Origin: Kiritimatiellia bacterium
GTDB lineage: Bacteria; Verrucomicrobiota; Kiritimatiellia; CAIQIC01; JAGNIJ01
Length of the DNA: 64,000 nt
Reading direction: 5' to 3'
Assembly (NCBI GenBank): GCA_018001225.1
Contig: JAGNIJ010000006.1
Location: forward strand, 29,188-93,187
The translations under genes were made by a program, and so were the position numbers. The notes below the pieces were generated by a model, which had not been told where the DNA came from, did not search any database, and saw only the letters and a program-made list of their open reading frames with translations. Below, one piece after another: positions 2,420 to 47,421 of the stretch. Each line of letters begins with the position of its first letter. The first letter of the stretch is position 1.

Positions 2420-2478
2420 GCGCGGGAGGGTTGCGCGCGCCGCGTCCGCACGGTAAGGTAACCGACAACCGGAGAGCG

Positions 2479-3867
2479 ATGATGCGATTACAATTCCTCG
2501 GCGGCGTGGACACGGTGACCGGCACCCAGCACCTCGTCGAATCCAACGGCGCTCGCGTGCTGCGCGACTGCGGCCTCTACCAGGGCCGCCGCGCGGAGTC
2601 CCGGGAGATCAACAGCCGCCTGCCGTTCGATCCGAAGAGTCTCGACTCCGTGGTCCTCTCGCACGCGCACATCGACCACTGCGGCAACCTGCCCTCCCTC
2701 GCGCGCGCCGGCTTCCGCGGACCGATCCACGCCACCACGGCCACCGCGGCGCTCTGCGGCGTGATGCTGCGGGACTCGGCGCACATCCAGGAGCAGGACG
2801 CCGCCTACCTGAACCAGAAGACCAGCCGGAAGGGCGAGGAGCCCGTGGTGCCCCTCTATACCCTGCGGGACGCCGAGGCCGCGCTGGGGCTGTTCCGGGG
2901 CTACCGCTACGGGGAGCCCGTGGACGTCGCGCCCGGCCTGCAGGCGACGTTCCGCGACGCCGGCCACATCCTCGGCGCCGCGCTGACGGTTTTCACGGAA
3001 CGGCGCGACGGCGCGGAGAAACGCGCCGGCTTCGCCGTGGACCTGGGGCGCGAGGGCCTGCCCCTGATCCGCGACCCCGAGCCCATGGAGAACCTGGATG
3101 CCCTGGTGCTGGAAAGCACCTACGGCGACCGCCTGCACGGCGAGGCCGCCGCCGCGGAGGACCAGTTATGCGACGTCGTCCAGCGGACCCTGCGGCGCGG
3201 CGGCAAGGTAATGATTCCCTCGTTCGCGCTGGAGCGGACGCAGGAGGTGGTCTACCACCTCGCCTCGCTGGTCCAGGCCGGGCGCCTCGCCAACCTGCGG
3301 GTCTACGTCGACAGCCCCATGGCCACCGCGATCAGCGGCCTGTTCGAGCAGTTCGCGGACTACCTGGACGACGAGTACCGCCAGCTCAACCACCGGTTCG
3401 GCTCGGTCATGTACCCGGAATGGGTGCGGTACATCGCCAGCGTCGACGAGTCCAAGGCCGTGACCGCCTGCCCGGATTCCTGCATCATCATCGCCGCCTC
3501 CGGCATGTGCGAGCACGGGCGCATCCTGCACCATCTCAAGCACGGCATCGAGAACCCGAAGAACACCGTGGTCATGGTCGGGTTCCAGGCCGCGCACACC
3601 CTCGGCCGCCGCCTGCTGAACGGCGAGAAGAAGGTCCGCATCTTCGGCGACTGGTTCGAACCGAAAGCGGAAGTGGTCGATCTCGATGCCTTCAGCGCGC
3701 ACGCGGACCGGAATGAACTGCTGGACTACGTCGCCCGCACCCGGCCGAAGCGGATCTTCCTGGTGCACGGCGAGCCGGACCAGCGCGCGGCGCTCGCCGC
3801 CGCGCTGAAGGAGAAGACCGACGCGCCCGTTGAACTGCCGAAACCGGGAGACGTAGCGGATATCTAG
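2479..3867 (+). CDS. MBL-fold metallo-hydrolase, beta-CASP family ribonuclease (RNase J / CPSF-like)
   Basis: HAHIDHCG metallo-beta-lactamase motif, the N-terminal LQFLGGVDTVTG pattern, and a C-terminal beta-CASP/RNA-specificity region. Start chosen at MMRLQF (in-frame ATGs also at 2431 and 2482). Confidence 0.75.
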   Translation: MMRLQFLGGVDTVTGTQHLVESNGARVLRDCGLYQGRRAESREINSRLPFDPKSLDSVVLSHAHIDHCGNLPSLARAGFRGPIHATTATAALCGVMLRDSAHIQEQDAAYLNQKTSRKGEEPVVPLYTLRDAEAALGLFRGYRYGEPVDVAPGLQATFRDAGHILGAALTVFTERRDGAEKRAGFAVDLGREGLPLIRDPEPMENLDALVLESTYGDRLHGEAAAAEDQLCDVVQRTLRRGGKVMIPSFALERTQEVVYHLASLVQAGRLANLRVYVDSPMATAISGLFEQFADYLDDEYRQLNHRFGSVMYPEWVRYIASVDESKAVTACPDSCIIIAASGMCEHGRILHHLKHGIENPKNTVVMVGFQAAHTLGRRLLNGEKKVRIFGDWFEPKAEVVDLDAFSAHADRNELLDYVARTRPKRIFLVHGEPDQRAALAAALKEKTDAPVELPKPGDVADI

Positions 3868-4005: not shown

Positions 4006-4902
4006 ATGCCCCACCCGAACTCATCGGACCTGAAACCCGCGGCCCTGGTGGCCGTGGTCGGCCGCGCCAACGCGGGCAAATCCACGCTGGTCAACGCGCT
4101 GGTCGGCGAGAAGGTCAGCATCGTCAGCCCCGTGGCCCAGACCACGCGGACGCGGGTGCGGGCGATCCTGACCGAGCCGCGCGGGCAACTGGTATTTCTC
4201 GACACGCCCGGCGTCCACAAGGCGACGTACGACCTCGGCAAGGTCATGAACCGCGCCGCCCGCGCCTCGGTGGAGGGCGCCGATATCGTCCTGCTGGTTC
4301 TCGATGCCTCGCGGCCGCTGCGCGAGGAGGATCTGGGCTGGATCAAGCGGCTGGGCCGCGGCGAGACACCCGTGGTGGTCGCGCTCAACCAGGCCGACCG
4401 GGGCGCGGCGCACGCGCCGGACGGCGGGAGCGCGTGGGAGAAGCCGCCCGCCGCGCAGGTCGCGGTGTCCGGGTTGACGGGGCAGGGGACCGGCGAGTTG
4501 CTCGCGGCCCTGTTCCGGCTCGCGCCTGCCGGCCCGCCGCTGTTCCCCGACAACGTGGTCACCGACTATCCCCGCAAGCTCATCATCGCCGACACCGTGC
4601 GCGAGAAGTATTTCCAGGTGCTGAAGGAGGAGTTGCCCCATGCCCTCGCGGTCGAGGTGGAAAGCTTGGAGGAGGGGCCGGACGGGTGGGTTGCCGAGGG
4701 GACGGTTTTCGTGCAGAAGAGTTCCCAGAAAGGCATCGTGCTGGGGGCGAAGGGCCGCCTGCTCAAGCGCGTCCAGGCCGCCGCGGAAAAGGAACTTGCC
4801 GAGATCTACGGGCATCCGGTGACCCTGTACCTCTGGGTCAAGGTGGACCCGAACTGGAGCCGGAATTTCTGGATGCTCCGGCGGCTCGGGTACGTGGAAT
4901 AA
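4006..4902 (+). CDS. era: GTPase Era
   Basis: G1 P-loop GRANAGKST, G3 DTPG, G4 NQAD motifs, plus a C-terminal KH-domain region (VESLEEGPDGWVAEGTVFVQKSSQKGIVLGAKG). Confidence 0.85.
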   Translation: MPHPNSSDLKPAALVAVVGRANAGKSTLVNALVGEKVSIVSPVAQTTRTRVRAILTEPRGQLVFLDTPGVHKATYDLGKVMNRAARASVEGADIVLLVLDASRPLREEDLGWIKRLGRGETPVVVALNQADRGAAHAPDGGSAWEKPPAAQVAVSGLTGQGTGELLAALFRLAPAGPPLFPDNVVTDYPRKLIIADTVREKYFQVLKEELPHALAVEVESLEEGPDGWVAEGTVFVQKSSQKGIVLGAKGRLLKRVQAAAEKELAEIYGHPVTLYLWVKVDPNWSRNFWMLRRLGYVE

Positions 4903-4999
4903 GCTTCGCCGCGCTGGAGGCGGGCCGCCCCCGGCCCGCGTCGGACGTCTTGTCGCCGCTTGACTCGATCACCGTACGGGGTATTGTGAAATGGATCGC

Positions 5000-5095
5000 T
5001 CGCGGGGGAGCTTGCTCGGCAGGCTGAGATTCCTCCATGAAGGAGAACCCCTGGAACCTGTACGGGTAATACCGTCGAAGGGAAGCGGCGCGAAC
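5000..5095 (+). promoter_or_regulatory. TPP (THI-box) riboswitch aptamer in the 5' leader of the PurM-family gene
   Basis: GGGGAGC...CUGAGA..(hairpin)..ACCC..GGAACCUGUACGGGUAAUACCGUCGAAGGGAA matches the conserved THI-element blocks (CUGAGA, ACCC, GAACCUG, GGnUAAUACC, CGnAGGGAA). Followed by a perfect hairpin ACGGGGTCTC...GAGACCCGT and the RBS GAAGGAGAA. Confidence 0.7.
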
Positions 5096-5172
5096 GGGGT
5101 CTCCCGGCGAGACCCGTTGCATTCCCGCCCCCGGGCCAGGACTCCCACGCGAACGGCCGAAGGAGAACCGCC

Positions 5173-6219
5173 ATGGCCCAACTCGGAAAAATCACGGACG
5201 ATTTCTTCCAGAAGATCATCAAGCCCCGCCTCGGCGCGAAGCGGCCCGAGGTGGCCGTCGGTCCCGAGCAGGGCGTGGACGTCGGCATCATCGAGCTCGG
5301 CGAGTACGCCCTCGCGATGACCGCCGACCCGGTGTTCATCGTGCCCGAGTACGGCTTCGAGCGCTCGGCCTGGTTCGCGATCCATATCCTCGCCAGCGAC
5401 GCGGCCACCTCTGGCCTGCCGCCGGCCTTCCTTTCCATCGATCTCAACCTTCCGCCCGAATTGCCCGACGCGGACCTGGCGGCGATGTGGGAGGTGATCC
5501 ACCGCGAGTGCGAAAAGATGGGCGCGGCGATCGTCACGGGGCACACCGGCCGGTATGATAATTGCCATTATCCCATGGTCGGCGGGGCGACGTTCATGGC
5601 CCTGGGCCCGCGGGATGCGTACTGCTCGCCGAAGTTCTGCCGGCCGGGCGACCGGATCATCATCACCAAGGGGCCCGCCGTCGAGGCCACGGGCATCTTC
5701 GCCGCGATGTTCCCAGGCCGGATCGAGAACGAATTCGGGGCCGCGGTCCGGAAACAGGCGGAGGACGTTTTCTACAAGATGTCCGTGGTCGAGGACGCGC
5801 GGATCGCGGCGTCCGTCGGCACGCGCGATCGCGGTGTGGCCGCGATGCACGACGCGACCGAGTACGGCATCACCGGCGGCCTGCTGGAATTCGCGAAGGC
5901 CGCGGGGCTGGGCCTGGTGGCGCACTACGACGAGATCGTCATGACGCCGGCCGTCGCGGAAATCTGCCGGTTGTTCGAAATGGAGCCCTTCAGCAGCATC
6001 AGCGAGGGCACGCTCATCGCCGCGGTCCGGCCGCACGCCGCCGGAGAAGTGTTGCGGCGGCTCCAGGATCGGGGCATTCTGGCCTCGATTTGCGGCGAGA
6101 TGACGCCGGCGTCGGACGGGATCCACGCGGTGATCGGCGGGAAGAAAAAGCCGATGGAACACCCGGGCGAGGATCCCTTCTGGGCCGCGTTCTTCCGCGC
6201 GCTGAAAGAGCGGGGATGA
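5173..6219 (+). CDS. AIR-synthase-related (PurM superfamily) protein, putative thiamine-monophosphate kinase-like enzyme under TPP riboswitch control
   Basis: PurM-like N-terminal domain pattern (GVDVGII...AMTADP...ASDAATSG, comparable to ThiL/HypE/PurM). The upstream THI-box suggests a thiamine-related role. No C-terminal Cys, unlike HypE. Confidence 0.6.
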   Translation: MAQLGKITDDFFQKIIKPRLGAKRPEVAVGPEQGVDVGIIELGEYALAMTADPVFIVPEYGFERSAWFAIHILASDAATSGLPPAFLSIDLNLPPELPDADLAAMWEVIHRECEKMGAAIVTGHTGRYDNCHYPMVGGATFMALGPRDAYCSPKFCRPGDRIIITKGPAVEATGIFAAMFPGRIENEFGAAVRKQAEDVFYKMSVVEDARIAASVGTRDRGVAAMHDATEYGITGGLLEFAKAAGLGLVAHYDEIVMTPAVAEICRLFEMEPFSSISEGTLIAAVRPHAAGEVLRRLQDRGILASICGEMTPASDGIHAVIGGKKKPMEHPGEDPFWAAFFRALKERG

Positions 6220-6244
6220 ACCACGGATTACACGGATCGCGCGG

Positions 6245-7849
6245 ATGAATTCAAGCATGGCTCCATCCGCGTTATCCACGACATCCGCGGGTTCACCTTC
6301 CGCGGAACGGGCCGGCTCCGAACGTCGGCGCTTGGTGGCGATGGTGCTGGTTCTCGCGCTGGTGGCCGTCCTGCCGTACACGCGCGGCCTGAAGCATGAG
6401 TTCGTCTACGACGACCTGGGCTCGATCGCGGAAAACGCCTTCCTGAATGAACCTGGCGCCGCCGCCCGCGCGTTGACCGGCCGCACGCTGCTGGACACGA
6501 CCGTCCCCGACGGGCGCCGGCCGGTCGTGATCGCGTCCTACTTGCTGGACCGGGCGCTGTGGGGCCTGCGGCCCTTCGGCTTTCACCTGGCGAACGTGCT
6601 GCTGCACGCGGGTGTTGTTCTTCTGCTATTCGGGCTCTTGCGCCGGTTGACGGGCGGGCGCTTCATTCCCTGGGCCGCCGCCCTGCTGTTCGCGCTGCAT
6701 CCCGTGGATGTCGAGGTGGTCCAGTCGCCGGCATTCCGCGAGGACCTGCTGGCGGCCCTGTTCGGCCTGGCGTTCCTGCGGGTCGCACTGGCCGGCGGTC
6801 CGGCGGCGTGGTGGTCCGTCCCGCTGCTGGGTCTGGCGCTGCTTTCCAAGGAGTCGGCGGTGGTTCTCGTTCCGCTGCTCGGCTGGATGGCGCTCTGCTT
6901 TCCTGTCGCGGGTCCGGATCGCCGAAAAGCGGTCCGCCTCTTGCTGGCCGGCCTCGGGTTGATCCTCGCCGCCGCCGCCCTGTGGTGGGGTAGCGGTTCG
7001 GTGCAGGCGGCGATGGGGGCCCCGGTCGGCATCGGCCTGCCGTTCCCGGAGAACCTCTGGACGGCGCCCTGGCTCTGGGTGAAGGCCCTGCGCTACCTGG
7101 TCCTGCCGTGGCCCCTGGTCGTGGACCACGTGGTGGAGCCCGTGCCGTCCTGGTCGTCGCCGGCCTGCCTCGCGGGCATCGCGCTCGCGGCGGGATTGGG
7201 CGCGGTTGCGTGGCTGATGCGCCGCCGGGCCCCGGACCTCGCGCTGGGGTTGGGCTGGCTGCTGCTGGCTTTCCTGCCGGTCTCGAACCTGGTTCCGCTC
7301 TTCAATCCGTTCGCCGAGCGCTATCTCTACTTCATGGCGCCCGGCGCCGCGCTGCTGGCGGCCGGGCTGCTGGCCCGGTGGCCCTCGCCCCGCGCGCGGG
7401 CGGCCGGCCTGGCCGCACTCGCCGCCGCCGGCGCGGCCCTGATCCTCCTGCGGCTCCCGGACTGGTCGGACAACGCCACGCTGTGGCGCCGCACGCTGGA
7501 GCGGGAGCCCCGCAGCGCGCGGGCGCATACCTGGGTCGCGCTGGATCTGAAACACAGGGGCGAACTCGACGAGGCGCGCCGCCTGCTGGAAGAGGCGGAC
7601 CGGCTGAACCCGCAGGACACGTCGGCGCTGGTCAATCTCGCGATCCTGTCGGGGCAGGCGGGGCAGCTCGAGGCGGCGGTGGCCCTGCTGCGCGAGGCGA
7701 CCCGCCGCCGGCCGGACAAGGCGGACGCGTGGTGGAACCTGGCCGTGGCCCTGAACCTCCAGGGCCGGACCGACGAGGCGGCGGACGCCGTGCGCCGCAC
7801 CCTGGAGGCCGATCCCCGCCACCCGGCCGCGCGCGCCGCCCGGGAATAA
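6245..7849 (+). CDS. TMTC-like polytopic membrane protein (DUF1736-like N-terminal region) with C-terminal TPR repeats; putative glycosyl/mannosyl-transferase family
   Basis: About 10 predicted TM helices with the hallmark FVYDDL motif near the N-terminus, then TPR repeats (AHTWVALDLKHRGELDEARRLLEEADRLNPQD...). Confidence 0.55.
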   Translation: MNSSMAPSALSTTSAGSPSAERAGSERRRLVAMVLVLALVAVLPYTRGLKHEFVYDDLGSIAENAFLNEPGAAARALTGRTLLDTTVPDGRRPVVIASYLLDRALWGLRPFGFHLANVLLHAGVVLLLFGLLRRLTGGRFIPWAAALLFALHPVDVEVVQSPAFREDLLAALFGLAFLRVALAGGPAAWWSVPLLGLALLSKESAVVLVPLLGWMALCFPVAGPDRRKAVRLLLAGLGLILAAAALWWGSGSVQAAMGAPVGIGLPFPENLWTAPWLWVKALRYLVLPWPLVVDHVVEPVPSWSSPACLAGIALAAGLGAVAWLMRRRAPDLALGLGWLLLAFLPVSNLVPLFNPFAERYLYFMAPGAALLAAGLLARWPSPRARAAGLAALAAAGAALILLRLPDWSDNATLWRRTLEREPRSARAHTWVALDLKHRGELDEARRLLEEADRLNPQDTSALVNLAILSGQAGQLEAAVALLREATRRRPDKADAWWNLAVALNLQGRTDEAADAVRRTLEADPRHPAARAARE

Positions 7850-7854
7850 TCGTA

Positions 7855-7886
7855 ACAAAACACATCACGGCCGTGATGTATTTTGT
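7855..7886. promoter_or_regulatory. 32-bp near-perfect palindrome (ACAAAACACATCACGG|CCGTGATGTATTTTGT) between the TMTC-like gene and gspE
   Basis: 16-bp arms with one mismatch, AT-rich relative to surroundings. Lies 6 nt after the upstream stop and about 90 nt before the gspE start. No T-tract follows, so not a classical terminator. Confidence 0.4.
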
Positions 7887-7976
7887 TGCAGTTAATCCAT
7901 GTGAACGCGGGGGCCCTCGGGGCGGACTAAACGGGTGCGGGGCGGCCGGATGGCCCTTGAATCCGGCTGCCCGACC

Positions 7977-16743: not shown

Positions 16744-19287
16744 ATGACCATGACACAAACAGGCCAAAAGAAATGGGCGAAGGCGCTGACCTGGTGGATG
16801 ATTCTTTCCTTCGCGGCCGCCGCCCTCCCGGCGCGTGGCCAGCCGCCGCCCGGCTTTCCCCCGGCGCCGGAAAGTGGAGAGGAGGAGAAATCCGTCAAGG
16901 TGGGTGACGACAAGCTGCTTTCGTTGAGTTTCCGCGACGCGCCGATCGAGCAGGTGGTGATGTTCTACAGCGAGCTGGTGGGGCGCACCCTGCTCCGCGC
17001 CCAGGGCCTCCCCGGCGGCACGATCACCCTCAAGTCCCAGACCCGGCTCACCCAGCGCGAGGCCCTCGAGGCCATCGAGAGCGTGCTGGCCATGAACCAG
17101 GTGGGCCTCGTGCCCATGGGCGAGAAGTTCCTCAAGGTCGTGCCCATCGGCAACGTGCGCGGCGAGGGCATGAAGCTTTCCCTCGAGATGCCGGAGACCC
17201 CGTTCCCCGAGACCGACCAGCTCGTCAGCCAGGTCGTGCCCCTGAAGTACATCGAGCCGGCCGAGGCCAACACGGTCCTGACCGGTTTCCTGCACGCGTC
17301 GTTCGGCAAGGTGCAGGTTCTCGAGCGGACCAGCAGCCTGCTGATCACCGATACCGCCGCCAACATGCAGCGCATCCTGGAAATCCTCGCGTACGTGGAC
17401 CAGCCCACGGAGGCGCGGGTGGAAACCCGGATCTACGAGATCAAGCACACCGAGGCCGCCAAGCTCGCCTCCCGCCTGAACGAACTGATCGCCGATACCC
17501 AGGCCAAGGAGGAGAAACCCCGCGTGGCCGCGCCGGTGACGTCCTCCATTCCCACGCCGCCGGGCGTTATCCGCGCCCGCCAGGCCGGCGCGGCCCCGGA
17601 CCAGGCCGCGCAGGACCTCGAGGCCGCGCTCGCCGAGCGCGGCATTGTCCAGGGCAAGGTCAAGATCGTCGCCGACGACCGCACCAACATCCTGATCGTG
17701 CTTTCGCGGCCCTCCAACTTCACCTTCTTCGACAAGATCATCACCGTGCTGGACCGGGAGGTGGACCCCGAGGTCGTCGTCAAGGTCCTGCCGCTCGAGT
17801 TCGCCAAGGCGAAGGACATCGCCGGCATCCTCAACGAGTTCATCGGTGCCGCGACGTCCGAGTCCAAGGACGCCCCGGCCGGGACGGGCCAGGCCCCCGC
17901 GGAAGGCGCGACGCCGGAGGCGGCGCGCAGCCAGGCCTTGCAGGAGTTCGTGGCGCAGCGGGCCGAGGCGCGCATGCGCCAGATCGCGTCGGGCGAAAAG
18001 ACCCGCATCGGCGAGCTCTCGCCCAACACGAAGATCCTGGCCGACGAGCGCACCAACGCCCTGCTGCTCATGGGCACGGTGAACGACATCAACGCATTGA
18101 TGGACATCATCGGCCAGCTCGACACCATGCTGGCCCAGGTCCTGATCGAGGCCGTGATCCTCGAGGTCAGCCTCACCAAGAGCCTGGACTACGGCGTCGA
18201 CTGGCTCCAGCGGTCCATGGCCGTCTACTCCGACGACAAGGTTGGCGCCGACGGCGGCGTCACGGTCAGCCAGCCGCTTTATTCCTTCGGCGGCGGCCAG
18301 CGCTTGAGCGACGGTACCGTCTTCCGGGACGGCAGCCAGATCACCCGGACCGACAGCGGGATCGGGGCGGGCGGGCTGACCTACTACTCCACGCTGGTCA
18401 ACCTGAACATCGATGCCGTCATCCGCATGGCCGCCGGGTCGTCCGACGCCCGCATCCTGTCCACCCCCGTCATCCTGACCACGGACAACACCGAGGCCAC
18501 CATCGTGGTCGGCGAGGAGCGGCCGGTCGTGACCTCCACCAGCACCTCCAGCGGCGGGCAGCAGACCTCCAGCTACGAGTACCGCAACATCGGCATCGAC
18601 CTCGCCGTCACGCCCCGGATCAACCCGGCCCGGTTTGTCACCATGGAGATCAAGCAGTCGGCCGACAACGTCGGCGGGTTCGAGACCATCGACGGCAACC
18701 GCGTGCCGGTGATCACGAAGCGCGAAATGGCCGCCCAGGTGGCCGTGGGGGACCGCTCGACCATCGTGCTGGGCGGGCTGGTCAGCACCGACCGCCGGGC
18801 CACGCGGGTCAAGGTGCCCATCCTCGGCGACATCCCGATCATCGGCACGCTCTTCCGGAACGACACCCGGGACGACAACCGCACCGAACTGCTCGTGCTC
18901 ATGACGCCGTACGTCCTGATGACCCAGGAGGAGGCGCGGAAGGAAACCGCGCGCCTGCACCGGGCCACGCGCTACTCCCAAACCCGGTGGCAGCGCGGCT
19001 GGTCGGACAGCGAGCTCGCCGGCCCGTCGAAGACGCGGGAACTGAAGATGGCGCCCTCGCTGCTGGACGATCCCGGGCAGAAGAAAAAGCGGAAGATCAA
19101 GGAAGCCAAAACGATTTCCCTGACGCCGGCCGAGACCAATGCGCCCACGCAGTCCCGCTTCCTCGTCACCGTCCCGGAGGATATCTCGTCCTCCCTCTTC
19201 AGCGAGCCCGCGGACGGCGGGGCGGAAGAGGGCGCCGCGCCCGAGGGCGGCGGCGAGGACGATCCGAACGCGCCCGTGCCGCCGTGA
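16744..19287 (+). CDS. gspD: Type II secretion system secretin GspD
   Basis: Signal peptide, N0 and N-domain repeats (SLSFRDAPIEQVVMFYSELVGRTLL; PLKYIEPAEANTVLTGFL), and the secretin core (VLIEAVILEVSLTKSLDYG..., VPILGDIPIIGTLFRN). Long acidic C-terminal extension. Confidence 0.85.
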   Translation: MTMTQTGQKKWAKALTWWMILSFAAAALPARGQPPPGFPPAPESGEEEKSVKVGDDKLLSLSFRDAPIEQVVMFYSELVGRTLLRAQGLPGGTITLKSQTRLTQREALEAIESVLAMNQVGLVPMGEKFLKVVPIGNVRGEGMKLSLEMPETPFPETDQLVSQVVPLKYIEPAEANTVLTGFLHASFGKVQVLERTSSLLITDTAANMQRILEILAYVDQPTEARVETRIYEIKHTEAAKLASRLNELIADTQAKEEKPRVAAPVTSSIPTPPGVIRARQAGAAPDQAAQDLEAALAERGIVQGKVKIVADDRTNILIVLSRPSNFTFFDKIITVLDREVDPEVVVKVLPLEFAKAKDIAGILNEFIGAATSESKDAPAGTGQAPAEGATPEAARSQALQEFVAQRAEARMRQIASGEKTRIGELSPNTKILADERTNALLLMGTVNDINALMDIIGQLDTMLAQVLIEAVILEVSLTKSLDYGVDWLQRSMAVYSDDKVGADGGVTVSQPLYSFGGGQRLSDGTVFRDGSQITRTDSGIGAGGLTYYSTLVNLNIDAVIRMAAGSSDARILSTPVILTTDNTEATIVVGEERPVVTSTSTSSGGQQTSSYEYRNIGIDLAVTPRINPARFVTMEIKQSADNVGGFETIDGNRVPVITKREMAAQVAVGDRSTIVLGGLVSTDRRATRVKVPILGDIPIIGTLFRNDTRDDNRTELLVLMTPYVLMTQEEARKETARLHRATRYSQTRWQRGWSDSELAGPSKTRELKMAPSLLDDPGQKKKRKIKEAKTISLTPAETNAPTQSRFLVTVPEDISSSLFSEPADGGAEEGAAPEGGGEDDPNAPVPP

Positions 19288-19376: not shown

Positions 19377-20477
19377 ATGGCAGTCATTGATTTCGGCGGC
19401 GTGAAGGAAAAGGTCATCACCCGCAAGGAGTTCCCGCTTTCGAAGGCCCGGAAGGTCCTGAAGGGAGAGGTCATCGCGATCATCGGCTACGGCGTGCAGG
19501 GCCCCGCCCAGTCGCTGAACCTCAAGGACAACGGCTTCAAGGTCATCATCGGCCAGGCCCCGGAGTTCAAACGCGACTGGGACCGCGCGGTGGCCGACGG
19601 CTGGGTGCCCGGCAAGACGCTCTTCGACATCGAGACGGCCGTGAAGAAGGCCACGGTCATCCAGTTGCTCGTCTCCGACGCCGCGCAGCGCGCCGTCTGG
19701 CCGGTGATCAAGAAGAACCTGAAGAAGGGCGACGCGCTCTACTTCTCGCACGGCTTCTCGATCACCTACAAGGACAAGTCCGGCGTGGTGCCGCCGAAGT
19801 GGGTCGACGTGATCATGGTCGCCCCGAAAGGGTCCGGCACCTCCGTGCGCCGTAACTTCCTCTCGGGCGCGGGCATCAACTCGAGCTACGCGGTCTACCA
19901 GGACGCCACGGGCCGCGCGAAGCAGCGCTGCCTCGCGCTCGGCATCGGGATCGGATCGGGTTATCTGTTCCCGACCACGTTCCCGCACGAGACCAACAGC
20001 GACCTGACCGGCGAGCGCGGCGTGCTGATGGGCTGCCTGGCGGGCGTGATGGAGGCCCAGTACGACACGCTCCGCAAGAACGGCCACTCGCCGAGCGAGG
20101 CGTTCAACGAGACCGTGGAGGAATTGACGCAGAGCCTGATCCGCCTCGTGGACGAACGCGGCATGGACTGGATGTACTCGAACTGCTCGGCCACGGCCCA
20201 GCGCGGCGCGTTGGACTGGAAGCCGAAGTTCAAGGCGGCGGTCCTGCCGGTGTTCCGCAAGCTGTACCAGCGCGTCTGCAGCGGCCAGGAGGCCGAGCGC
20301 GTCATCCAGGTCTGCGGGAAGAAGAACTACCAGCAGCGGCTGGCGAAGGAACTGGGCGCCATCCGGGATTCCGAGATGTGGCGCGCTGGCGCCGCCGTGC
20401 GCGCGCTGCGCCCGAAGGATACCGGCCGCGAGATCAAGAGCGGCACCAAGGGCGTCGGCGGCCGGGCCGCGAACTGA
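19377..20477 (+). CDS. ilvC: Ketol-acid reductoisomerase
   Basis: IIGYGVQGPAQSLNLKDNG Rossmann motif and class I KARI length and core. Confidence 0.85.
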   Translation: MAVIDFGGVKEKVITRKEFPLSKARKVLKGEVIAIIGYGVQGPAQSLNLKDNGFKVIIGQAPEFKRDWDRAVADGWVPGKTLFDIETAVKKATVIQLLVSDAAQRAVWPVIKKNLKKGDALYFSHGFSITYKDKSGVVPPKWVDVIMVAPKGSGTSVRRNFLSGAGINSSYAVYQDATGRAKQRCLALGIGIGSGYLFPTTFPHETNSDLTGERGVLMGCLAGVMEAQYDTLRKNGHSPSEAFNETVEELTQSLIRLVDERGMDWMYSNCSATAQRGALDWKPKFKAAVLPVFRKLYQRVCSGQEAERVIQVCGKKNYQQRLAKELGAIRDSEMWRAGAAVRALRPKDTGREIKSGTKGVGGRAAN

Positions 20478-21506: not shown

Positions 21507-24500
21507 TTACGGGGAGAGCACCCGGACCCGGTACAGGCGCGAGGTGATGCTCGGCGTGGCGAAGTTGGTGTCCACGTACGTAGTCGTGCCGGAACTGCCC
21601 CAAAACGCGCCGCCGAGGTAGAGCCAGCCGTTCGTAAAGGGCGGCGCGGCGCTGCGATAGAGAACCTGGTAGCGGCGGTTGGTGCTGGACAGGAACCGGA
21701 TCTGCGCCCAGCGGCTGGTCGGAATCGCGGCCGCCTGGGTCACGCGCAGGAGGCTGTTGGCGAGGTTGGGGTCGGTATCCGCCATGTACTCCTCGTAATT
21801 CGACAACCCGTCGCCCTCGATGTCGATGTTGCGGTCCGCGTCGTTCGTGGGATTGAGGCCGTTGGTCTGCTCCCACGTATTCGGCATGCCGTCGCCATCC
21901 CGGTCGCTGTCGCAGGCGTCGCCGACGCCATCACCGTCCAAGTCGGCCTGGTCCAGGTTGGCGACGTTGATGCAGTTGTCCTCGATGTCGCGGAGGCCGT
22001 CGGAATCCGCGTCGTGGTTGGTGTTGCACAGCGTGCAACGCAGGACGACGTCGTCCACCTCCCAGAACAGTTCGTTCCGGGCGTTGTAATAGCGGAACCG
22101 GATGCCCACGTTGGTCAGGCCGGCGAGCGGGGTGGTGAGGTTGATGGTCTCGGTGGCCGGGCCCCGGTAGTCGGCCCGCGACTTCCGCCAGACGTTCGAC
22201 CATGGGCCGGAGAACCCGCTTCGGCAGATATCCACGTCGCAGGTTTCGGACCGGTTGCCGGAGTACCAGTCGAAATCGGTCTTGAACTCGAGTTCCACCG
22301 AGCTCACGGCGCCCAGGTTCAGCACGGGTGGGCGCATTTCCACGTCCATCGTCACGCGGGAGTAGAACCGGCTGTCGGCGATGGCCATGCCGTTGGAGCC
22401 GCCGGTGCCGTTGACCACGTCGCGCGGATTGTCGAACCGCCACGCGGCGGTGCCGCTGTTGGTGGCCAGGGTCCAGCCCGCGGGCAGCGTTTCGGAGGAG
22501 AACGACTCGTCCAGCAGGTTGGTGGTCACGATCGCCCCGGTACACTCATCGCATGCGTCGCCCGTGCCGTCCCCGTCCCGGTCAAGCTGGTTGGCATTGG
22601 CGATGCCCGGGCAGTTGTCCACGCTGTCCTCGACGCCGTCGAGGTCCGCGTCCACGGCGCAGGCGTCGCCGATGCCGTCCCCGTTGGAGTCCTGCTGCCC
22701 GGGATTGGAGGTGGTCGGGCAGTTGTCGCTGTCGTTCGGGATGCCATCGTTGTCGCTGTCGTCGTCGCAGGCGTCGCCCTGTGAGTCCCCGTCGGCATTT
22801 TCCTGCAGCGGGTTGTATGCGGAGGAGCAGTTGTCGAGCGAGTTCGACACCCCGTCGCCGTCCAGGTCGAGGTCGCACGCATCGCCCTGCCCGTCGCCGT
22901 CCAGGTCGGCCTGGTCCGGGTTGTAGGTGGCCGGGCAGTTGTCCTCGTCGTCGTAGATCCCGTCGTTGTCGTCGTCGTAATCGCAGGCATCGCCGTCGCC
23001 GTCGCCGTCACTGTCCACCTGGTCGGCATTGGCGAGATACGGGCAATTGTCGCTGGCGTTCAGCACGCCGTCGTCGTCGATGTCCGGATCGCAGGCGTCG
23101 CCGAGCCCGTCGCCGTCCGCGTCGCTCTGGATGGGGTTCCAGTTGGTGGGGCAGTTGTCGTCCGGGTCGAAGAAACTGTCGCTGTCGGTGTCTTTCTCGC
23201 CGGTGACCAGGCTGCCGGAGATCTGCCCGCTGTTGATCGCGCCCGGGGTGGCCGTGGCCAGGATCCAGTTCGTGGTCGTGCCGATGATATCGTTGGGCGC
23301 CTGGAGCGTGGTGTCTGTCGAGGAATCGGCGCGCAGAACGTGAAGGTAGGTGTTCTCGAGCGACGAGATGTTGGTGAACACGGTGCCGGGGTCGTCGTAG
23401 GCCAGGTCGCCCGCGCCGCCCCAAGCGATGGCGTCGAGGATATTGGTCACCGAGTCGTAGAGGACCAGGCCGTCGCCGGGCCCGTTTTGAAGGCTATCCG
23501 GCAGCAAGAGGTCGGTATTGGCCACGTTGTTGCTGTTCTGGCTAATCACCACGAAGCCCATGGCCTGTCCGTTGGTGTTGACCACGCCGTCGTCCGGCAC
23601 GGTGATGGAAGGCAGGTCATACCGCCACAAACCGCCCTCTTCGTTCGTGGCCCCGTTGAAATGGCGGATGAAATAGCCCTGGAGATTCACCCCGGCCGGC
23701 GCGATGAGTTCAACAAACTCGTTGGTGTCCGTGCTGTTGCCGTCCGCTTGAACCTCGTTGAAGAACGGGCGGGATGCCGCCTCGTAGGTGGCCGGGAAAG
23801 CGTAACTGTTGGTCACGGTGAAGCCCGGGCTGACGGCGTTGGTGCCCTGGAACGCATACCGGACATAATAATCGAAGCTGTCGCCGGCGTCGGGCGACAT
23901 GGAGAGGGTGCCGGTGGACCACTGGTTGCTCGCGCCCTCCGTCATGGCGTTGCTCACCCAGGCGCCGCTCGCGATCCGGTAGAACGCCGCGGCGGCCAGG
24001 TTGGAGGCGGGGAGGTTGTCCTGGAGCGCGACCACGATCGCCACGGCCGTGGTGTGGAAGGGCGCGGAGGGCGACAGGCGCAGGGAGGAACTGACCACGC
24101 CGGCCTGGTCGCAGGCCGCGTGGACCCGGGGCGTGGCCAAGGCCCCCGCCACGAGGGTCCACTCGTTGGTGTCGAATTCCGACAGGGGATCGCAGACCCC
24201 GGCCTTGCGGTACACCGCGTTGCTGCGGTAGGCCCAGGCCATGCTGTAGTCGTTGGTGCTCGCCGGCTCGCCGGAGACGCCGTAGATGTCCATGATCGAG
24301 CCGGCCGAGTTTTTCAGCGCCACCACGTCGTTGCCGTTCAGGAACAACAGGTTGGTGTGCGCCCGTTCCGCGCCCAGGCCGTACGCGTTGAAGAAATCGG
24401 AGGTCCGGGCCGTGACGATGTAGGTCTGGCCCGCGGCGATCGAGTTGCTCAACGGCACGTTCAGCGTCGTGGAGCCGTCCCGGTAGATGACCAGCGTGTA

Positions 24501-25634
24501 GTTGGTCAGCGAATAACCGGCCGTGCCGGAGTTGTACAACTCGACGTAGTTCGCGCCGGCGTTGGTCGGATGGTCCACCACCTCGCTGATCAGCGCGACC
24601 GGGTTCAGGCAGGGGAGCGAGTCCATCAAATGAATGTCGGAGAAAATCAGGAAGTGATCGGACGAGTTGGTGCTGGTCGAGGCGGCGAGGGGCGCGCCGT
24701 ACTTCGTCAACCCGCCGCTGCCGTCGTCCTGGGCGGAGTTGTAGATCTCGCCGACAGGGGCCCCGTACGGGCTGTCCATGATCTGGCCGCTGAAATAGAA
24801 GTAGTCGTAGCGCGGCCCGGTCATGTACGTGTTCATGTTCGTGCTGTCTTCCTGGAAGATGTTGAACTGCTCCAGGCCGATCTCGGCGGGCTTGTCGGTC
24901 GGGTGAAGCCGGTACTTGACCGCGTAGACAATGTCCGTTCCCACGGCGAAATCGGCCGGGTAATCCCCGGCCGGTTGCGAGGCAAAACTATCCACCTGAC
25001 TGTCGGTCACGTCCTCGTTGAAGTCCCCCGTGATCACGTACTCCGTGTCCAGCGGGTAGGTCTCGGCCCAGCCGGCGATGTTGGTCACCGTGCGCATGAG
25101 CTCCAGGGCCCGCCGGAACTGATCGGCGCTGGTGTCGGCGGCCTTGTTGTGCACGCAGTAATAATGGAAGGGGTTCAACGCGCCGGGCACCTGGATCACC
25201 GCGTGCAGCGGCCAGCGGGTCATCTCCTTGGCGCCGTCCGGCTCCTTGATTTCGTACGTGGCCGTGATGGGGTAGCGGCTGTAGAACCCGTTGCGGTGCG
25301 CGCCGGCGTACGTGCCGCCCGTGCCGTAGGCGTAATAGGGATAGTCCAGCTCCGCGGCGAGCGTTACCCAGTAATCGTAGTCGCCGTCGTTCAATTCCTG
25401 GAAGGCGATGATGTCGGGATTGATCCGCTGCAGGATGCCCTTGGCCGCGTTGTAATTGGTGGAGCCGACCGCCCCGACGCCGAACAGCGTGTTCCACGAG
25501 GCGATGCGGACCTTCACGGCCTCCGCCGGAAGCGCCAGGCCCACCGCCATCAAGCCATAAACACAGACACGAGCCGCCTTCCTGCACCACCATGCCCTGC
25601 CCGTCATCAACATGACCTCCCAGCCCTTATGCAA
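21507..25634 (-). CDS. Large secreted endonuclease/exonuclease/phosphatase (EEP) family protein with two lamin-tail (LTD) domains and many thrombospondin type 3 Ca-binding repeats
   Basis: Signal peptide and an EEP domain ([12 protein letters not shown]...[11 protein letters not shown]). Two LTD-like segments ([22 protein letters not shown]...; [23 protein letters not shown]...). Runs of DxDxDGxxDxxDNCP TSP3 repeats and a C-terminal beta-rich domain. Confidence 0.7.
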
Positions 25635-34327: not shown

Positions 34328-35458
34328 ATGGCCATCAGCACAACGCCGGGAAGCCGGTCCCGTTCCGCCGCGACCGCCGCCTCGGCCCCGATCCGGAAGC
34401 GCCGGATCCCCGGCGCGCAGAAGATCAAGGCCAAGGAACTGCCGGCCTTCACCCGCCAGATGGGCGCCATGCTGTCGGCCGGTCTGCCGGTGGTCCAGAC
34501 CCTGGAGGCGCTGGAGGAGCAGAACACCAACAAGGTCTTCAAGCACGTCATCAGCGGCGTCAAGTCGCGCATCGAGGGCGGGGCGTCTTTTTCCGAGGCG
34601 CTGGCCCAGTACCCGGACATCTTCGACGAGCTCTACATCAGCATGCTGCGGGCCGGGGAGAGCGGGGGCATGCTGGCGGAAACCACCGCCCGCATCGCGA
34701 CCTTTCTCGAGGGCTGGGTGCGGCTGAAGCGCAAGGTCAAGTCGGCCATGATGTACCCCGTCATCGTGATGGTGGTCGCCCTGCTTATCACGTCGTCCCT
34801 GATCATCTGGATCGTGCCCATCTTCGCGAGCATCTATGCCGACTTCGGGGCGGATCTTCCCGGCCCCACCCAGTGGCTCATGAACGTCAGCACCGCCATG
34901 CGCAAGAACGCGGTTTTTGTCGTGGCGGGGATCGTCGTGACGGCGATCGCCCTGGGCCAGTTCAAGAAAACCGAGAAGGGGGCGTTCATGTGGGACGGGA
35001 TCAAGCTCCGGCTCCCGGTTGTCGGCGAACTGGTGCGCAAGATATCCCTCGCCCGATTCTCCTCCACCTTCGCCCAACTGACGCGCAGCGGGGTGCCGAT
35101 CCTGCAAACCATGGAGATCGTCGCCTACGCGACGGGGAACAAGGTGCTGGGCAAGATCGTCCTTGACGCGCGGACCAACGTCGAGCGGGGCGAGCCCCTC
35201 TCCGCGGCCCTCAACAAGAGCAGGGCCTATCCCCGCCTGCTGATCCACATGCTCACGGCGGGCGAAAAAACAGGCCGCGTGGACGAGATGCTCGCCAAGA
35301 TCGCCGACTTCTATAACGACGAAGTGGAGACCACGCTCGCGGGCCTGACCTCCCTCATTGAGCCCCTGCTGATCGTGTTCCTGGGCGTGATCATCGGCGG
35401 CGTCGTGGTCTGCATGTTCATGCCCATCTTCAAGATGCATGAGATCGTAGGCTTCTGA
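34328..35458 (+). CDS. PilC/GspF-family platform protein (second copy)
   Basis: Two PilC/GspF repeats and 3 TM. Paralogous to gspF at 9736. Confidence 0.75.
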   Translation: MAISTTPGSRSRSAATAASAPIRKRRIPGAQKIKAKELPAFTRQMGAMLSAGLPVVQTLEALEEQNTNKVFKHVISGVKSRIEGGASFSEALAQYPDIFDELYISMLRAGESGGMLAETTARIATFLEGWVRLKRKVKSAMMYPVIVMVVALLITSSLIIWIVPIFASIYADFGADLPGPTQWLMNVSTAMRKNAVFVVAGIVVTAIALGQFKKTEKGAFMWDGIKLRLPVVGELVRKISLARFSSTFAQLTRSGVPILQTMEIVAYATGNKVLGKIVLDARTNVERGEPLSAALNKSRAYPRLLIHMLTAGEKTGRVDEMLAKIADFYNDEVETTLAGLTSLIEPLLIVFLGVIIGGVVVCMFMPIFKMHEIVGF

Positions 35459-35668
35459 AGCCCGCTCTGAATCCGGCGGCAGGGCAGAATCGAGATGCGT
35501 TGCGTGATCCACGCGCATGCTCCAACACCCCTTTGGATAATCGCCGCCGGACCACTCCCTTTGCATGAAAAATGCATCCATTTTTTACAAAATGAGAACA
35601 TTTTTCTTAACATTGAGTGGATAAACCTGTACTCTTACCCCGGTGGTCGGGTTGTCTTGGAGATTATT

Positions 35669-37048
35669 ATGGCGCGAATACTCTTGGTGGATGACGAGGC
35701 CAGTATCCTTAGCGTGTTAAGCACCTTGCTCAAGGCCGAGGGGCACGAGGTGCTGCCGGTCATGGGCGGCGAGAAGGCGCAGGACCTCATCCGCAACGAG
35801 CAGTTCGACCTCATGATCTCGGACATCCGGATGAGCCCCGTAGACGGCATGCAGCTTCTCCAGCAGATCCGCAAGGAAAAGCCCCAGACGGCGGTAATCA
35901 TGATCACGGCGTACGGGTCAGTGGAGACTGCCGTCGAAAGCATGAAGCAGGGCGCCTTTGACTACGTGACCAAACCCTTCAAGGTGGACGAGCTCCTGCT
36001 GACCGTCCAGCGGGCGCTGGAGTACGGGGCGGCGATGGCGGAGAACGTTGAACTCAAGGCCCAGATCGAATCGCGTTACCATTTCGAGAACATCATTGCC
36101 GAGAGCGCGGCCATGCGCCGGGTCTGCGAAATGATCGAGCGGGTGGCCCCGACGGATACCACCGTGCTGATCCTGGGGGAGAGCGGGACGGGCAAGGAAC
36201 TGGTGGCCAAGGCCATTCATGCCCACAGCCGCCGGAAGAACAAGCGGTTCCTGCCCATCAACTGCGCGGCCATGCCCGAGCCGCTCCTGGAGTCAGAGAT
36301 GTTCGGGCACGTCAAGGGCGCCTTCACGGGAGCCACCGTCAACAAGGATGGCTTGTTCGAGGCCGCCAACGGCGGGACGATCTTCCTGGACGAGATCGGG
36401 GCCATGCCGCCCAGCATCCAGGGCAAGCTCCTGCGAGTGCTCCAGGACAAGCAGATTCGGCGGGTGGGGGGGACCGACTCGGTGGCCGTGGATGTCCGTG
36501 TCCTGGCCGCCACAAACGACCGGCTGGAAAATCTGATCGAGCAGGGCAAGTTCCGGGAAGACCTGTATTATCGTTTGAGCGTTATCCCTATAGAAATCAA
36601 GCCGCTGCGGGAGCGTATCGAGGATGTCCTTCCCTTGTGCTATCACTTTCTCCGCCAGGAGGCGGGCCCCAACCGCGAGCCTTTGCCCGTGGATCCGGAT
36701 GCCCAGTTGGTCATGGAGCAGTACTCCTGGCCGGGTAACGTGCGGGAACTGGAAAACGCCGTCCGCCACGCCATGACCTTCGCACAGGAAAAGGGGCGTA
36801 TCACGAGGGATGTCCTGCCCGCGAAGATTGTCGCGGCAGTCGACAGCGGAGCCACGACCGCGGCGGCGATAGGAATCCGCGCCGAGCAGTTCAAGGGTAA
36901 ATCACTGAAGAGCTTCCTTCGCAGCAAGGAAAAAGAGTACCTTGAGCAGGTGCTAAAGAACGTTGATGGTGATAAAGCCAAGGCCGCCAAGGCGTTAAAG
37001 ATAAGCCTTGCCACTCTCTACCGGAAGCTTCCGGAGCCCAGAGAATAA
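35669..37048 (+). CDS. Sigma-54-dependent response regulator (NtrC/PilR family enhancer-binding protein)
   Basis: REC domain (LLVDDE...D in LMISDIRM), AAA+ sigma-54 activator domain with Walker A GESGTGKE and the GAFTGA motif, and a C-terminal Fis-type HTH. Preceded by a low-GC leader containing the palindrome TGCATGAAAAATGCA. Confidence 0.85.
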   Translation: MARILLVDDEASILSVLSTLLKAEGHEVLPVMGGEKAQDLIRNEQFDLMISDIRMSPVDGMQLLQQIRKEKPQTAVIMITAYGSVETAVESMKQGAFDYVTKPFKVDELLLTVQRALEYGAAMAENVELKAQIESRYHFENIIAESAAMRRVCEMIERVAPTDTTVLILGESGTGKELVAKAIHAHSRRKNKRFLPINCAAMPEPLLESEMFGHVKGAFTGATVNKDGLFEAANGGTIFLDEIGAMPPSIQGKLLRVLQDKQIRRVGGTDSVAVDVRVLAATNDRLENLIEQGKFREDLYYRLSVIPIEIKPLRERIEDVLPLCYHFLRQEAGPNREPLPVDPDAQLVMEQYSWPGNVRELENAVRHAMTFAQEKGRITRDVLPAKIVAAVDSGATTAAAIGIRAEQFKGKSLKSFLRSKEKEYLEQVLKNVDGDKAKAAKALKISLATLYRKLPEPRE

Positions 37049-40735: not shown

Positions 40736-40808
40736 GACCCCATCATCTAGAGGCCTAGGATACCAGGTTTTCATCCTGGACACACGGGTTCGAATCCCGT
40801 TGGGGTCG
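40736..40808 (+). tRNA. tRNA-Glu (anticodon TTC)
   Basis: GACCCCATCATCTAGAGGCCTAGGATACCAGGTTTTCATCCTGGACACACGGGTTCGAATCCCGTTGGGGTCG. The 7-bp acceptor, D-arm, anticodon loop TTTTCAT and T-loop GGTTCGAATCC resemble E. coli tRNA-Glu. No encoded CCA. Confidence 0.8.

Positions 40809-47346: not shown

Positions 47347-47421
<75 letters not shown>

Follow-up and report, generated by a model that had tools for sequence, protein, structure and literature searches.

The window, as we call the whole 64,000-nucleotide stretch of DNA that was analysed, belongs to a contig of a Kiritimatiellia bacterium. In it, a thiamine pyrophosphate (TPP) riboswitch precedes a gene of the PurM superfamily, here called X, which is followed by a gene for a multi-pass membrane protein (Table 1).

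Table 1. Features of the X locus, numbered from the first nucleotide of the window.
Feature	Position	Strand	Identified by
Putative promoter-like site (TTGACT, 16 nt, TATTGT) just 5' of the riboswitch	4960..4987	+	Consensus scan
TPP riboswitch aptamer (THI element, RF00059)	4994..5101	+	Rfam cmscan
Small conserved hairpin GGUCUC..GAGACC in the expression platform, candidate regulatory element	5098..5114	+	RNAalifold
Shine-Dalgarno AAGGAG, 7 nt 5' of the ATG	5160..5165	+	Read from the sequence
Gene X, 348-aa PurM-superfamily (AIRS + AIRS_C) protein	5173..6219	+	ORF calling, Pfam, NCBIfam, homologues, AlphaFold
GT-C/TMTC-like multi-pass membrane protein of 534 aa, TPR repeats at the C-terminus	6245..7849	+	TPR Pfam, hydropathy, FVYDD
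Terminator-like hairpin and T-rich tail after the TPR gene (weak)	7862..7889	+	Consensus scan

A first-pass annotation had proposed the riboswitch on the basis of six THI-box sequence blocks and had suggested an Rfam covariance scan as a check. All six blocks were located in the leader (5005, 5024, 5047, 5054, 5064, and 5076), and the scan of the whole window (cmscan, Rfam 15) bore the claim out with a match to the full RF00059 model (1-105) at 62.6 bits and E = 6.5e-10, which is above the gathering score of 54.3. In the cmscan alignment the ligand-contacting blocks CUGAGA, ACCUG, and CG.AGGGA, at 5024, 5054, and 5076, are in register with P2-P5. The aptamer was also scored at 108 bits by R1, a covariance model built in this analysis that was used solely as a detector because its consensus structure is non-canonical. 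The gap between the riboswitch and the ATG of X, which lies on the same strand, is 72 nt. Judged by its sequence, the riboswitch is genuine and would control X; its TPP binding and its effect on expression are predicted.

Several parts of the leader around the aptamer are conserved. The -35 block CTTGACTC does not vary across four related loci, nor does the AGGAG of the Shine-Dalgarno sequence in four relatives. For the small hairpin, RNAalifold applied to five related leaders gave six pairs with zero compensatory changes, in agreement with the leader alignment, and the CUCC of this hairpin is able to pair with the Shine-Dalgarno sequence. A T-run terminator was sought in the expression platform and none was found; in minimum free energy folding, the full leader did not do better than its shuffles (z = -0.05). 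The riboswitch would sense TPP in the 5' leader, and because the platform has no T-run terminator and carries the conserved CUCC hairpin beside the Shine-Dalgarno sequence, TPP probably switches expression off at translation initiation.

The X protein passes the Pfam cut-offs for both AIRS (38.9 bits, cut-off 24) and AIRS_C (74.3 bits, cut-off 23.1), and its earlier description as AIR-synthase-related holds. It falls below every NCBIfam equivalog cut-off, namely those for HypE (TIGR02124, 68.8 against 251.6 bits), ThiL (TIGR01379, 46.5 against 184.15), and SelD (TIGR00476, 42.9 against 125), and its likeness to ThiL is therefore at superfamily level only, as had been proposed. PurM models gave no significant match to X, and solved PurM sequences matched it only at E ~0.001-0.08. 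The AlphaFold2 model is of high confidence (pLDDT 94.5) and has a PurM-like fold. A fold search placed it nearest to HypE (TM 0.78), and it matches HypE, SelD, ThiL, and PurM structures at E 1e-16 or better; a solved structure was found for no member of the X family. The acidic residues D36, D52, D76, and D227 are invariant across the X family, HypE, and ThiL (alignment A11). The Cys/His-rich insert noted in the first pass was confirmed in part. NCHYPMVGG is a family motif that includes a six-residue insertion relative to E. coli HypE, but Cys131 is invariant in the core subfamily only and lost from more distant members, and CSPKFC is not conserved even inside the core family. The broad-family alignment contains no family-wide conserved cysteine, and persulfide relay by conserved cysteines was dropped for this reason. 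Two motifs are common to X and SelD, namely GGH(S/T) and an N-terminal G-x-K-I-S-P-x-hydrophobic stretch in which the Lys is conserved; unlike in SelD, the N-terminus of X (..LGKIT..) contains no Cys, so that the N-terminal loop has no Cys/Sec, and X genes stand in a thiamine context.

Sequence comparison places X in a large and strongly conserved clade of the PurM/ThiL/HypE/SelD superfamily that is as yet uncharacterised. The family has more than 6000 matches and 257 clusters at 50% identity, and is very conserved. Its hosts are uncultured anaerobes, CPR bacteria, and archaea, and include Dehalococcoidia, Verrucomicrobia/Kiritimatiellae, Planctomycetes, Omnitrophica, candidate phyla, Patescibacteria, DPANN, and ammonia-oxidising archaea, the last with distant members. 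The JGI annotation of many members is "hydrogenase maturation factor", others are labelled just "AIR synthase family protein", and one NCBI record calls an X-ThiN fusion "ThiDN". A literature search for the family in connection with thiamine, riboswitches, or sulfur returned nothing relevant. The "PurM-like" groups of unknown function in CDD consist of generic relatives of AIR synthase whose sole annotation is "AIR synthase family protein", and we know of no function or thiamine link attached to them. The cultured Ardenticatena maritima has a homologue of X, and the gene context of this homologue is uninformative.

The riboswitch recurs in front of X. It was found directly upstream on the same strand in 17 of 80 genome loci, 9 of 80 metagenome loci, and L083, and this arrangement is shared by at least 27 homologous loci from at least four phyla (Verrucomicrobia, Planctomycetales, Zixibacteria, and Dehalococcoidia/Chloroflexi). 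Within those loci all TPP matches stand in front of X, and 12 of the loci are above the Rfam gathering score; the element of L083 reached 70 bits with R1, yet lies under that score. X genes without a riboswitch are the majority. Genes were called in high-GC loci with a GC3 filter and tblastn. In six loci (L010, L039, L067, L078, L085, and L086) thiE (TMP-TENI) lies immediately 3' of X. In other cases X is fused to ThiN, a thiamine-phosphate synthase domain, either as X-ThiN (P0123, P0271, P0272, and P0194) or in the reverse order (P0155); several contigs, independent of one another and up to 187 kb long, carry such fusions. In L168, a bacterial X-ThiN gene is itself preceded by a TPP riboswitch found with Rfam (63.7 bits). 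An archaeal contig (L165) has X-ThiN next to thiC (499.6 bits against a cut-off of 410) and a canonical thiL (197.2 bits against 184.15), from which it diverges, and ThiD is absent from the 20 kb examined there. Across the 175 X loci (~1.5 Mb in total, loci only) no ThiD or ThiM homologue was found with query sequences that had been validated against PDB ThiD and ThiM structures. In two archaeal lineages, X members at 34-38% identity to the window protein lie directly behind the thiamine transporter gene thiT, and in L048 the order is [TPP]-X-MFS transporter. Taken together, riboswitches, thiE operons, ThiN fusions, and thiT operons strongly support an independent and recurrent link to thiamine, and with it the earlier suggestion of an undescribed thiamine salvage or modification enzyme. 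Some candidates were set aside. P0278 was counted as an adjacency and not as a ThiE fusion, since it comes from just one contig of 2.8 kb and its ThiE part is truncated. P0260 and P0202 were rejected as X+PfkB fusions (weak PfkB scores, truncated X parts), and a weak ThiL-like tblastn match in L042 was traced to a SelD gene that contains a TGA codon in frame.

The family has a thiamine context, and X probably is an ATP-dependent enzyme of the thiamine pathway at the thiamine-phosphate (TMP) synthase node, neither ThiL nor HypE. It would carry out an ATP-using step of thiamine diphosphate biosynthesis or salvage adjoining the TMP synthase reaction. Probably the best reading is a new PurM-fold kinase at this node, with HMP-P kinase as the first guess and thiamine kinase as the second; kinase activity and substrate are both predicted. 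As an HMP-P kinase, an assignment that we make tentatively, X would phosphorylate HMP-P to HMP-PP and be a non-homologous replacement of ThiD with ThiL-like chemistry, the phosphorylation of a phosphate monoester. ThiL shows that a PurM fold is able to phosphorylate a phosphate monoester; we know of no PurM-superfamily enzyme that acts on HMP-P. The X-ThiN fusion puts X in the position of ThiD in archaeal ThiDN, and the canonical thiL beside X-ThiN in L165 suggests that X is not simply ThiL. ThiD, ThiDN, and ThiED are the systems that X most plausibly works like, by analogy of predicted function: like X, they occur in fusions with ThiN, ahead of thiE, in the vicinity of thiC and thiL, and under TPP riboswitches. 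There is no homology between the two. ThiD has a ribokinase fold (Phos_pyr_kin) and X a PurM fold; X is therefore not a member of the ThiD family, and only its function is proposed to be similar. Some observations speak against an HMP-P kinase. The mostly riboswitch-free X genes look more like housekeeping thiL than thiD, the thiT-X operons fit a thiamine kinase better, and in ammonia-oxidising archaea, which are reported to have ThiDN and ThiL already (PMC12236431), X would duplicate one or the other.

The thiT-X pairs, which are two-gene operons in both archaeal lineages, suggest that X could instead be a thiamine kinase or other salvage kinase that would turn thiamine taken up from outside into TMP or TPP and feed ThiL. 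This is possible, if rather unlikely. For this salvage step, we know of no enzyme in many anaerobes and archaea. X occurs in Patescibacteria and DPANN-type organisms, which usually depend on salvage, and the order with an MFS transporter gene in L048 also speaks for such a kinase. Coexistence with ThiL in L165 is compatible with it, and an essential activation step could well be encoded constitutively, within housekeeping operons. The kinase would, however, have to phosphorylate an alcohol, and we know of no PurM-superfamily precedent for this. The archaeal cluster of thiC, thiL, and X-ThiN would then be without a nearby HMP-P kinase, and the thiT-linked members are distant enough from the window protein that their substrate may differ.

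The leading idea of the first-pass annotation, a divergent TMP kinase isofunctional with ThiL, is disfavoured and in our estimate unlikely. X and ThiL have in common the superfamily, a two-domain fold, conserved Asp motifs, the thiamine pathway and, as proposed for X, the phosphorylation of phosphate monoesters by ATP. Where X is fused to a TMP synthase or encoded next to one, two successive steps would be brought together, and the frequent location of X in riboswitch-free housekeeping operons is thiL-like. Identity between the two is nevertheless about 15-19%, the ThiL score is far below the cut-off, and X is nearer to HypE in both sequence and structure. X further differs from ThiL in that it carries an N-terminal GK motif and, at the C-terminus, a DP(F/Y)W helix, and has GHT where ThiL has GDT/GDV. 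X is often riboswitch-controlled, whereas such control is reportedly rare for thiL. The X-ThiN relative of L165 shares one thiamine cluster with canonical ThiL and ThiC, and ThiL is reported in ammonia-oxidising archaea.

A second kind of neighbourhood was found around X. IscS lies within three genes of X in 72 of 163 loci, and Aminotran_5, NifU_N, MnmA, FdhD, MOSC, NIL, HcyBio, TusA, and ThiI are enriched among the neighbours. The order IscS-[TPP riboswitch]-X-thiE is seen, for example, in L067 and L146, a Patescibacteria contig has IscS-IscU-MnmA-CsoR-X, and in L167 a ThiN-X fusion is followed by MnmA. The association of X with IscS, IscU, MnmA, FdhD, MOSC, and NIL genes is at least as strong as the thiamine link, and a plain HMP-P kinase does not account for the IscS-IscU-MnmA neighbourhood. 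With such neighbours, X could be an ATP-dependent partner of IscS that would activate a carbonyl or carboxylate oxygen for the insertion of IscS-derived sulfur and so contribute to the formation of the thiazole, to the repair of thiamine, or to the pathway's Fe-S enzymes. Amide oxygens are activated in the chemistry of PurM, PurL, and HypE, and SelD partners functionally with NifS-like enzymes, a parallel to the IscS neighbourhood of X. We nevertheless regard this role as quite unlikely. X lacks the family-wide conserved cysteine that would be expected by comparison with ThiI, MnmA, TusA, and LarE, thiT-X operons would make no sense for a thiazole-forming step, and one conserved Dehalococcoidia gene string supplies much of the isc association. 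In a bolder form, to which we give similarly little weight, X would be the founder of a new enzyme class that couples PurM/PurL/HypE-type ATP oxygen activation to IscS-derived sulfur, in a previously unknown step making or repairing the thiamine thiazole. Such a class would explain the thiamine signals and the IscS-IscU-MnmA-FdhD neighbourhood together.

In the order [TPP]-X-thiE, X takes the operon position of thiM, and thiM-thiE operons and ThiE-ThiM fusions are classic; X might thus be a hydroxyethylthiazole kinase, a functional analogue of ThiM, and the lack of a ThiM homologue in any X locus agrees with this. We consider it very unlikely, since this too would be an alcohol phosphorylation unprecedented in the superfamily and the fusion partner of archaeal ThiN is ThiD, not ThiM. 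Finally, a HypE-type hydrogenase maturation factor, or a PurM paralogue that gives AIR to ThiC, is hardly credible: HypE is the best HMM match (family profile E = 1.3e-23) and fold match, both proteins have ~340 aa, and the JGI labels point the same way, but the score is far under the HypE cut-off, X ends in ...DPFWAAFFRALKERG and lacks the C-terminal PR[IV]C cysteine of true HypE (...PRIC in L081), a true HypE beside HypD coexists with X elsewhere on the same contig, no hyp families are among the most frequent neighbour families of X, where thiamine and isc genes are found instead, and PurM models have no significant match to X. The missing catalytic cysteine and the gene context effectively refute the HypE identity.

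Thiamine biosynthesis is considered essentially solved, yet a family of thousands of sequences shows four independent genomic signatures of a role in thiamine metabolism. If X is a non-homologous HMP-P or thiamine kinase, calls of B1 auxotrophy or prototrophy that rest on ThiD, ThiK, or TPK markers would be wrong for many uncultured lineages. The isc linkage, which lies outside a simple-kinase reading, leaves room for a more unusual function.

The gene downstream of X begins 25 nt past the X stop codon. In its product, about 8-9 hydrophobic segments and an FVYDD motif are combined with TPR repeats at the C-terminus, on account of which the earlier label "TMTC-like" is fair. It is probably co-transcribed with X in the window, as had been suggested; the arrangement is limited to part of a Verrucomicrobia-type clade, a TPR gene following X also in L001, L003, and L083 (4-nt overlap) and not in L002 and L007. 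The scan that gave the weak terminator-like hairpin behind this gene returned 2 sites against 1.6 expected in shuffles.

The riboswitch-linked gene of the window encodes X, a 348-aa protein (the name is also used for its homologues) that belongs to the PurM superfamily yet to none of its characterised families, since it was tested for the defining traits of ThiL, HypE and SelD and lacks those of all three. Its Pfam AIRS and AIRS_C domains score above their cut-offs and it misses all curated NCBIfam equivalogs widely (bits obtained/cut-off: HypE, 68.8/251.6; ThiL, 46.5/184.15; SelD, 42.9/125), which confirms the first-pass annotation's reading of a non-canonical PurM-superfamily gene behind a TPP riboswitch. 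More than 6000 database proteins match X. The nearest of them (75-94% identity) are encoded in Verrucomicrobiota and Kiritimatiellae MAGs, under no other name than "AIR synthase family protein" or "hydrogenase maturation factor." Among 1.84 billion cluster representatives searched, 257 X clusters reached E <= 1e-30, with identities down to ~25-30%. Conservation is unusually strong, with a mean column identity of 72% among 16 sequences from several phyla. Two MAGs each carry two X copies on separate contigs (loci L011 and L051 in CAZIAH01; L037 and L057 in JAUWLY01), so X paralogues can coexist.

The AlphaFold2 model of X is confident (pLDDT 94.5, pTM 0.92). Its top fold matches are HypE (TM 0.78), SelD (TM 0.66-0.70), ThiL (TM 0.63-0.68), and PurM, at 14-24% identity, and no X member was found among the solved structures compared. 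When the whole family was aligned with one true ThiL and one true HypE, the superfamily aspartates D36, D52, D76, and D227 were invariant. The features specific to X are an N-terminal G-K motif similar to that of SelD, the motif MHDxTEGG, and a C-terminal DP(F/Y)W helix. X has GHT where HypE and ThiL have GDT/GDV, and it lacks the C-terminal PRIC cysteine of HypE. The Cys/His-rich insert noticed earlier is present and includes 6 residues inserted relative to E. coli HypE, but it is a subfamily trait, because the family alignment contains no cysteine conserved across all of X.

When the entire 64 kb of the window was scanned with Rfam 15, three RNAs reached their gathering scores, namely a TPP riboswitch, which is an ordinary RF00059 member, and two tRNAs. 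The original claim is borne out by the Rfam score of the riboswitch, and the six sequence blocks it quoted were all located (5005, 5024, 5047, 5054, 5064, and 5076). The -35 block of a sigma-70-like promoter match ahead of it is unchanged across 4 related loci. A T-run terminator was looked for downstream of the aptamer and is absent. The CUCC of a small platform hairpin could pair alternatively with the invariant AGGAG of the Shine-Dalgarno sequence, and such pairing would place control at translation. This level of control is only inferred, because the hairpin lacks covariation support and MFE folding of the whole leader is uninformative.

Features of the window (positions in window coordinates).
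Feature	Position	Strand	Details
Beta-CASP/metallo-beta-lactamase ribonuclease	2431-3867	+	just upstream of era
era	4006-4902		
Sigma-70-like promoter match	4960-4987		TTGACT, 16 nt, TATTGT
TPP riboswitch	4994-5101	+	62.6 bits, gathering 54.3, E = 6.5e-10, full-length match
Small hairpin GGUCUC..GAGACC	5098-5114		in 72-nt platform; kept in 5 relatives
Shine-Dalgarno AAGGAG	5160-5165		precedes X ORF
Gene X	5173-6219	+	348 aa; AIRS + AIRS_C
TPR membrane-protein ORF	6245-7849		starts 25 nt past X
Terminator-like hairpin	7862-7879		after TPR gene
Type II secretion/type IV pilus and sigma-54-regulator-like genes	7935-9713; 14768-16171; 16744-19287; 34328-35458; 35495-37048		scattered
ilvC	19377-20477		
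Very large ORF, no assigned function	21507-25634	-	1375 aa
tRNA gene	40736-40808	+	Rfam 57.7 bits
tRNA gene	47347-47418	+	Rfam 66.1 bits
Very large ORF, no assigned function	47631-54350		2239 aa

The link of X to thiamine recurs across genomes. We fetched 80 genome and 80 metagenome loci encoding X and searched them with a covariance model trained on five X-linked aptamers. In 17 of the 80 genome loci and 9 of the 80 metagenome loci, plus L083, X is immediately preceded by a TPP element on its own strand, and the model found none elsewhere in the fetched loci. Rfam itself supports 12 of the X-linked elements above gathering. The hosts are labelled Verrucomicrobia, Planctomycetales, Zixibacteria, and Dehalococcoidia/Chloroflexi. 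Clustering 164 X proteins at 80% identity gave 42 clusters, 8 of them with riboswitch-linked genes; at 70% identity there were 11, of which 3 had such genes. In the Zixibacteria locus L072 the aptamer (5450-5549) follows straight after a tRNA gene and lies ~430 nt before X (5980-7053), far more than at other loci. The Brocadiaceae contig L008 has an Acido-Lenti-1 sRNA at 4318-4363 (-).

Gene order and fusions point the same way. The next gene 3' of X is thiE (TMP-TENI) in L010, L039, L067, L078, L085, and L086, all of which carry the riboswitch. X is fused to the thiamine-phosphate synthase domain ThiN in the family proteins P0123, P0271, P0272, and P0194, and in reverse order in P0155; such fusions are present on several independent contigs. 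In L168 the bacterial X-ThiN gene is itself controlled by a predicted TPP riboswitch, called by Rfam at 63.7 bits. That contig also has an FMN riboswitch at 17879-18023 (-) ahead of a riboflavin operon. A Thia_YuaJ (ThiT) gene directly precedes X in two distant lineages, a Nitrososphaerales-type cluster (38% identity) and a Bathyarchaeota cluster (34%). The predicted protein P0266 (309 aa) combines the N-terminal half of X with an EamA-type transporter domain. Two neighbouring genes may have been merged in its gene call; if the protein is real, it is a further transporter-X pairing. Full-text search found no papers tying the X family to thiamine, TPP riboswitches or sulfur metabolism. From sequence and context, X is predicted to be a new enzyme family that serves one step of the known thiamine pathway. 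This lead to a "missing enzyme" is well supported and open to direct test, one component of it being genuinely unexplained and the exact reaction hypothetical.

Most plausibly, X works like ThiD or a thiamine kinase, to both of which it is unrelated, the likeness being one of proposed function only. ThiD-ThiE and ThiD-ThiN fusions are known, as are riboswitch-controlled thiD-thiE operons, and ThiL shows that a PurM-type fold is able to phosphorylate a phosphate monoester. On these precedents the leading specific hypothesis, which we put forward tentatively, is that X may be an HMP-P kinase (HMP-P to HMP-PP). In the archaeal locus L165 (Ca. Norongarragalina), X-ThiN divergently adjoins thiC (499.6 bits, cut-off 410) and a canonical thiL (197.2 bits, cut-off 184.15). 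The sole step missing from this cluster of ThiC, ThiN, and ThiL is HMP-P to HMP-PP. X holds the place in X-ThiN that ThiD holds in archaeal ThiDN, and NCBI names the L165 fusion "ThiDN." Searches of 175 X loci by tblastn found no ThiD or ThiM homologues; the E. coli queries were validated against PDB ThiD (580 bits) and ThiM (378 bits). The main rival, a thiamine or salvage kinase, is rather unlikely. It fits the thiT-X operons, the MFS gene paired with X in L048, and the occurrence of X in Patescibacteria and DPANN lineages. It also fits ammonia-oxidising archaea, which are reported to have ThiL already, ThiDN being an archaeal marker gene (PMC12236431). A TMP kinase, the "divergent ThiL" of the first-pass annotation, is possible and less favoured, because X-ThiN coexists with a true ThiL in L165. 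A HET kinase is likewise possible and less favoured.

X also has sulfur-gene neighbours. Pfam families were counted for the four closest neighbours of X, two per side, in 78 genome loci, which gave class-V aminotransferase (cysteine desulfurase) 29, NIL 15, PALP 10, MnmA 10, FdhD 8, NifU_N 7, BadF/BcrA ATPase 6, HcyBio 6, and ThiI 3. By BLAST, IscS lies at most 3 genes from X in 72 of 163 loci. Dehalococcoidia-type contigs have the recurrent same-strand string MetY-PALP-NIL-IscS-IscU-X-MOSC-FdhD-NadA. The link reaches beyond this lineage: a Patescibacteria contig has IscS-IscU-MnmA-CsoR-X, MnmA comes after a ThiN-X fusion, and L083 has the order X-TPR-MnmA. In several loci, e.g., L067 and L146, the riboswitch lies between iscS and X. 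X proteins with a riboswitch link and those with an isc link share at least 70% identity, so on sequence grounds they almost certainly share one function. The isc neighbourhood could be housekeeping synteny, as thiL too sits within unrelated housekeeping operons, or it could reflect a sulfur- or Fe-S-related side of X. That X catalyses a sulfur-coupled reaction is improbable, and a role as persulfide carrier is argued against by the absence of any family-wide cysteine.

The string, in which MetY is Cys_Met_Meta_PP, resembles a sulfur/Fe-S "super-operon" and occurs in L006, L013 (3277-8104), L019, L036, L044-L047, L066, L096, L100, L110, L114, L116, L130, L148, and others. Its NIL member is a stand-alone 80-aa protein beside IscS (L013:5747-5989, L019:65-307, L066:4544-4786, and homologues). 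It is extremely conserved and always ends in ...GD(I/V)(V/I/M/L)EG, not in the GG with which sulfur-carrier proteins typically end. In L042, a SelD-like gene (1500-2520, +) lies ~4 kb upstream of the isc-X cluster; it shows an apparent frameshift and, within ..AAG*ASKLGPGDL.., a TGA in frame that probably encodes selenocysteine.

The gene behind X was earlier called TMTC-like, and the label fits, as ~8-9 transmembrane segments, an FVYDD motif, and C-terminal TPR repeats are GT-C/TMTC-like. The gene comes after X as well in L001, L003, and L083, where the two share 4 nt, and is absent behind X in riboswitch-bearing L002 and L007. Co-transcription with X is likely in the window's clade; no thiamine link of the TPR gene was seen. 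Among 15 window ORFs scanned there are no other thiamine genes. The ribonuclease upstream of era has a strong sub-threshold NCBIfam match to "type VII CRISPR-associated Cas14" (374 bits, cut-off 800) and scores 281 bits against the aCPSF1 model (cut-off 580). Of the secretion and pilus matches, the GspE/PilB-like ATPase is slightly below cut-offs, the PilM-like match is weak, and the PilC/GspF-like match is below cut-off, as is the best NCBIfam match of the sigma-54 response-regulator-like protein. The GspD secretin is above its cut-off.
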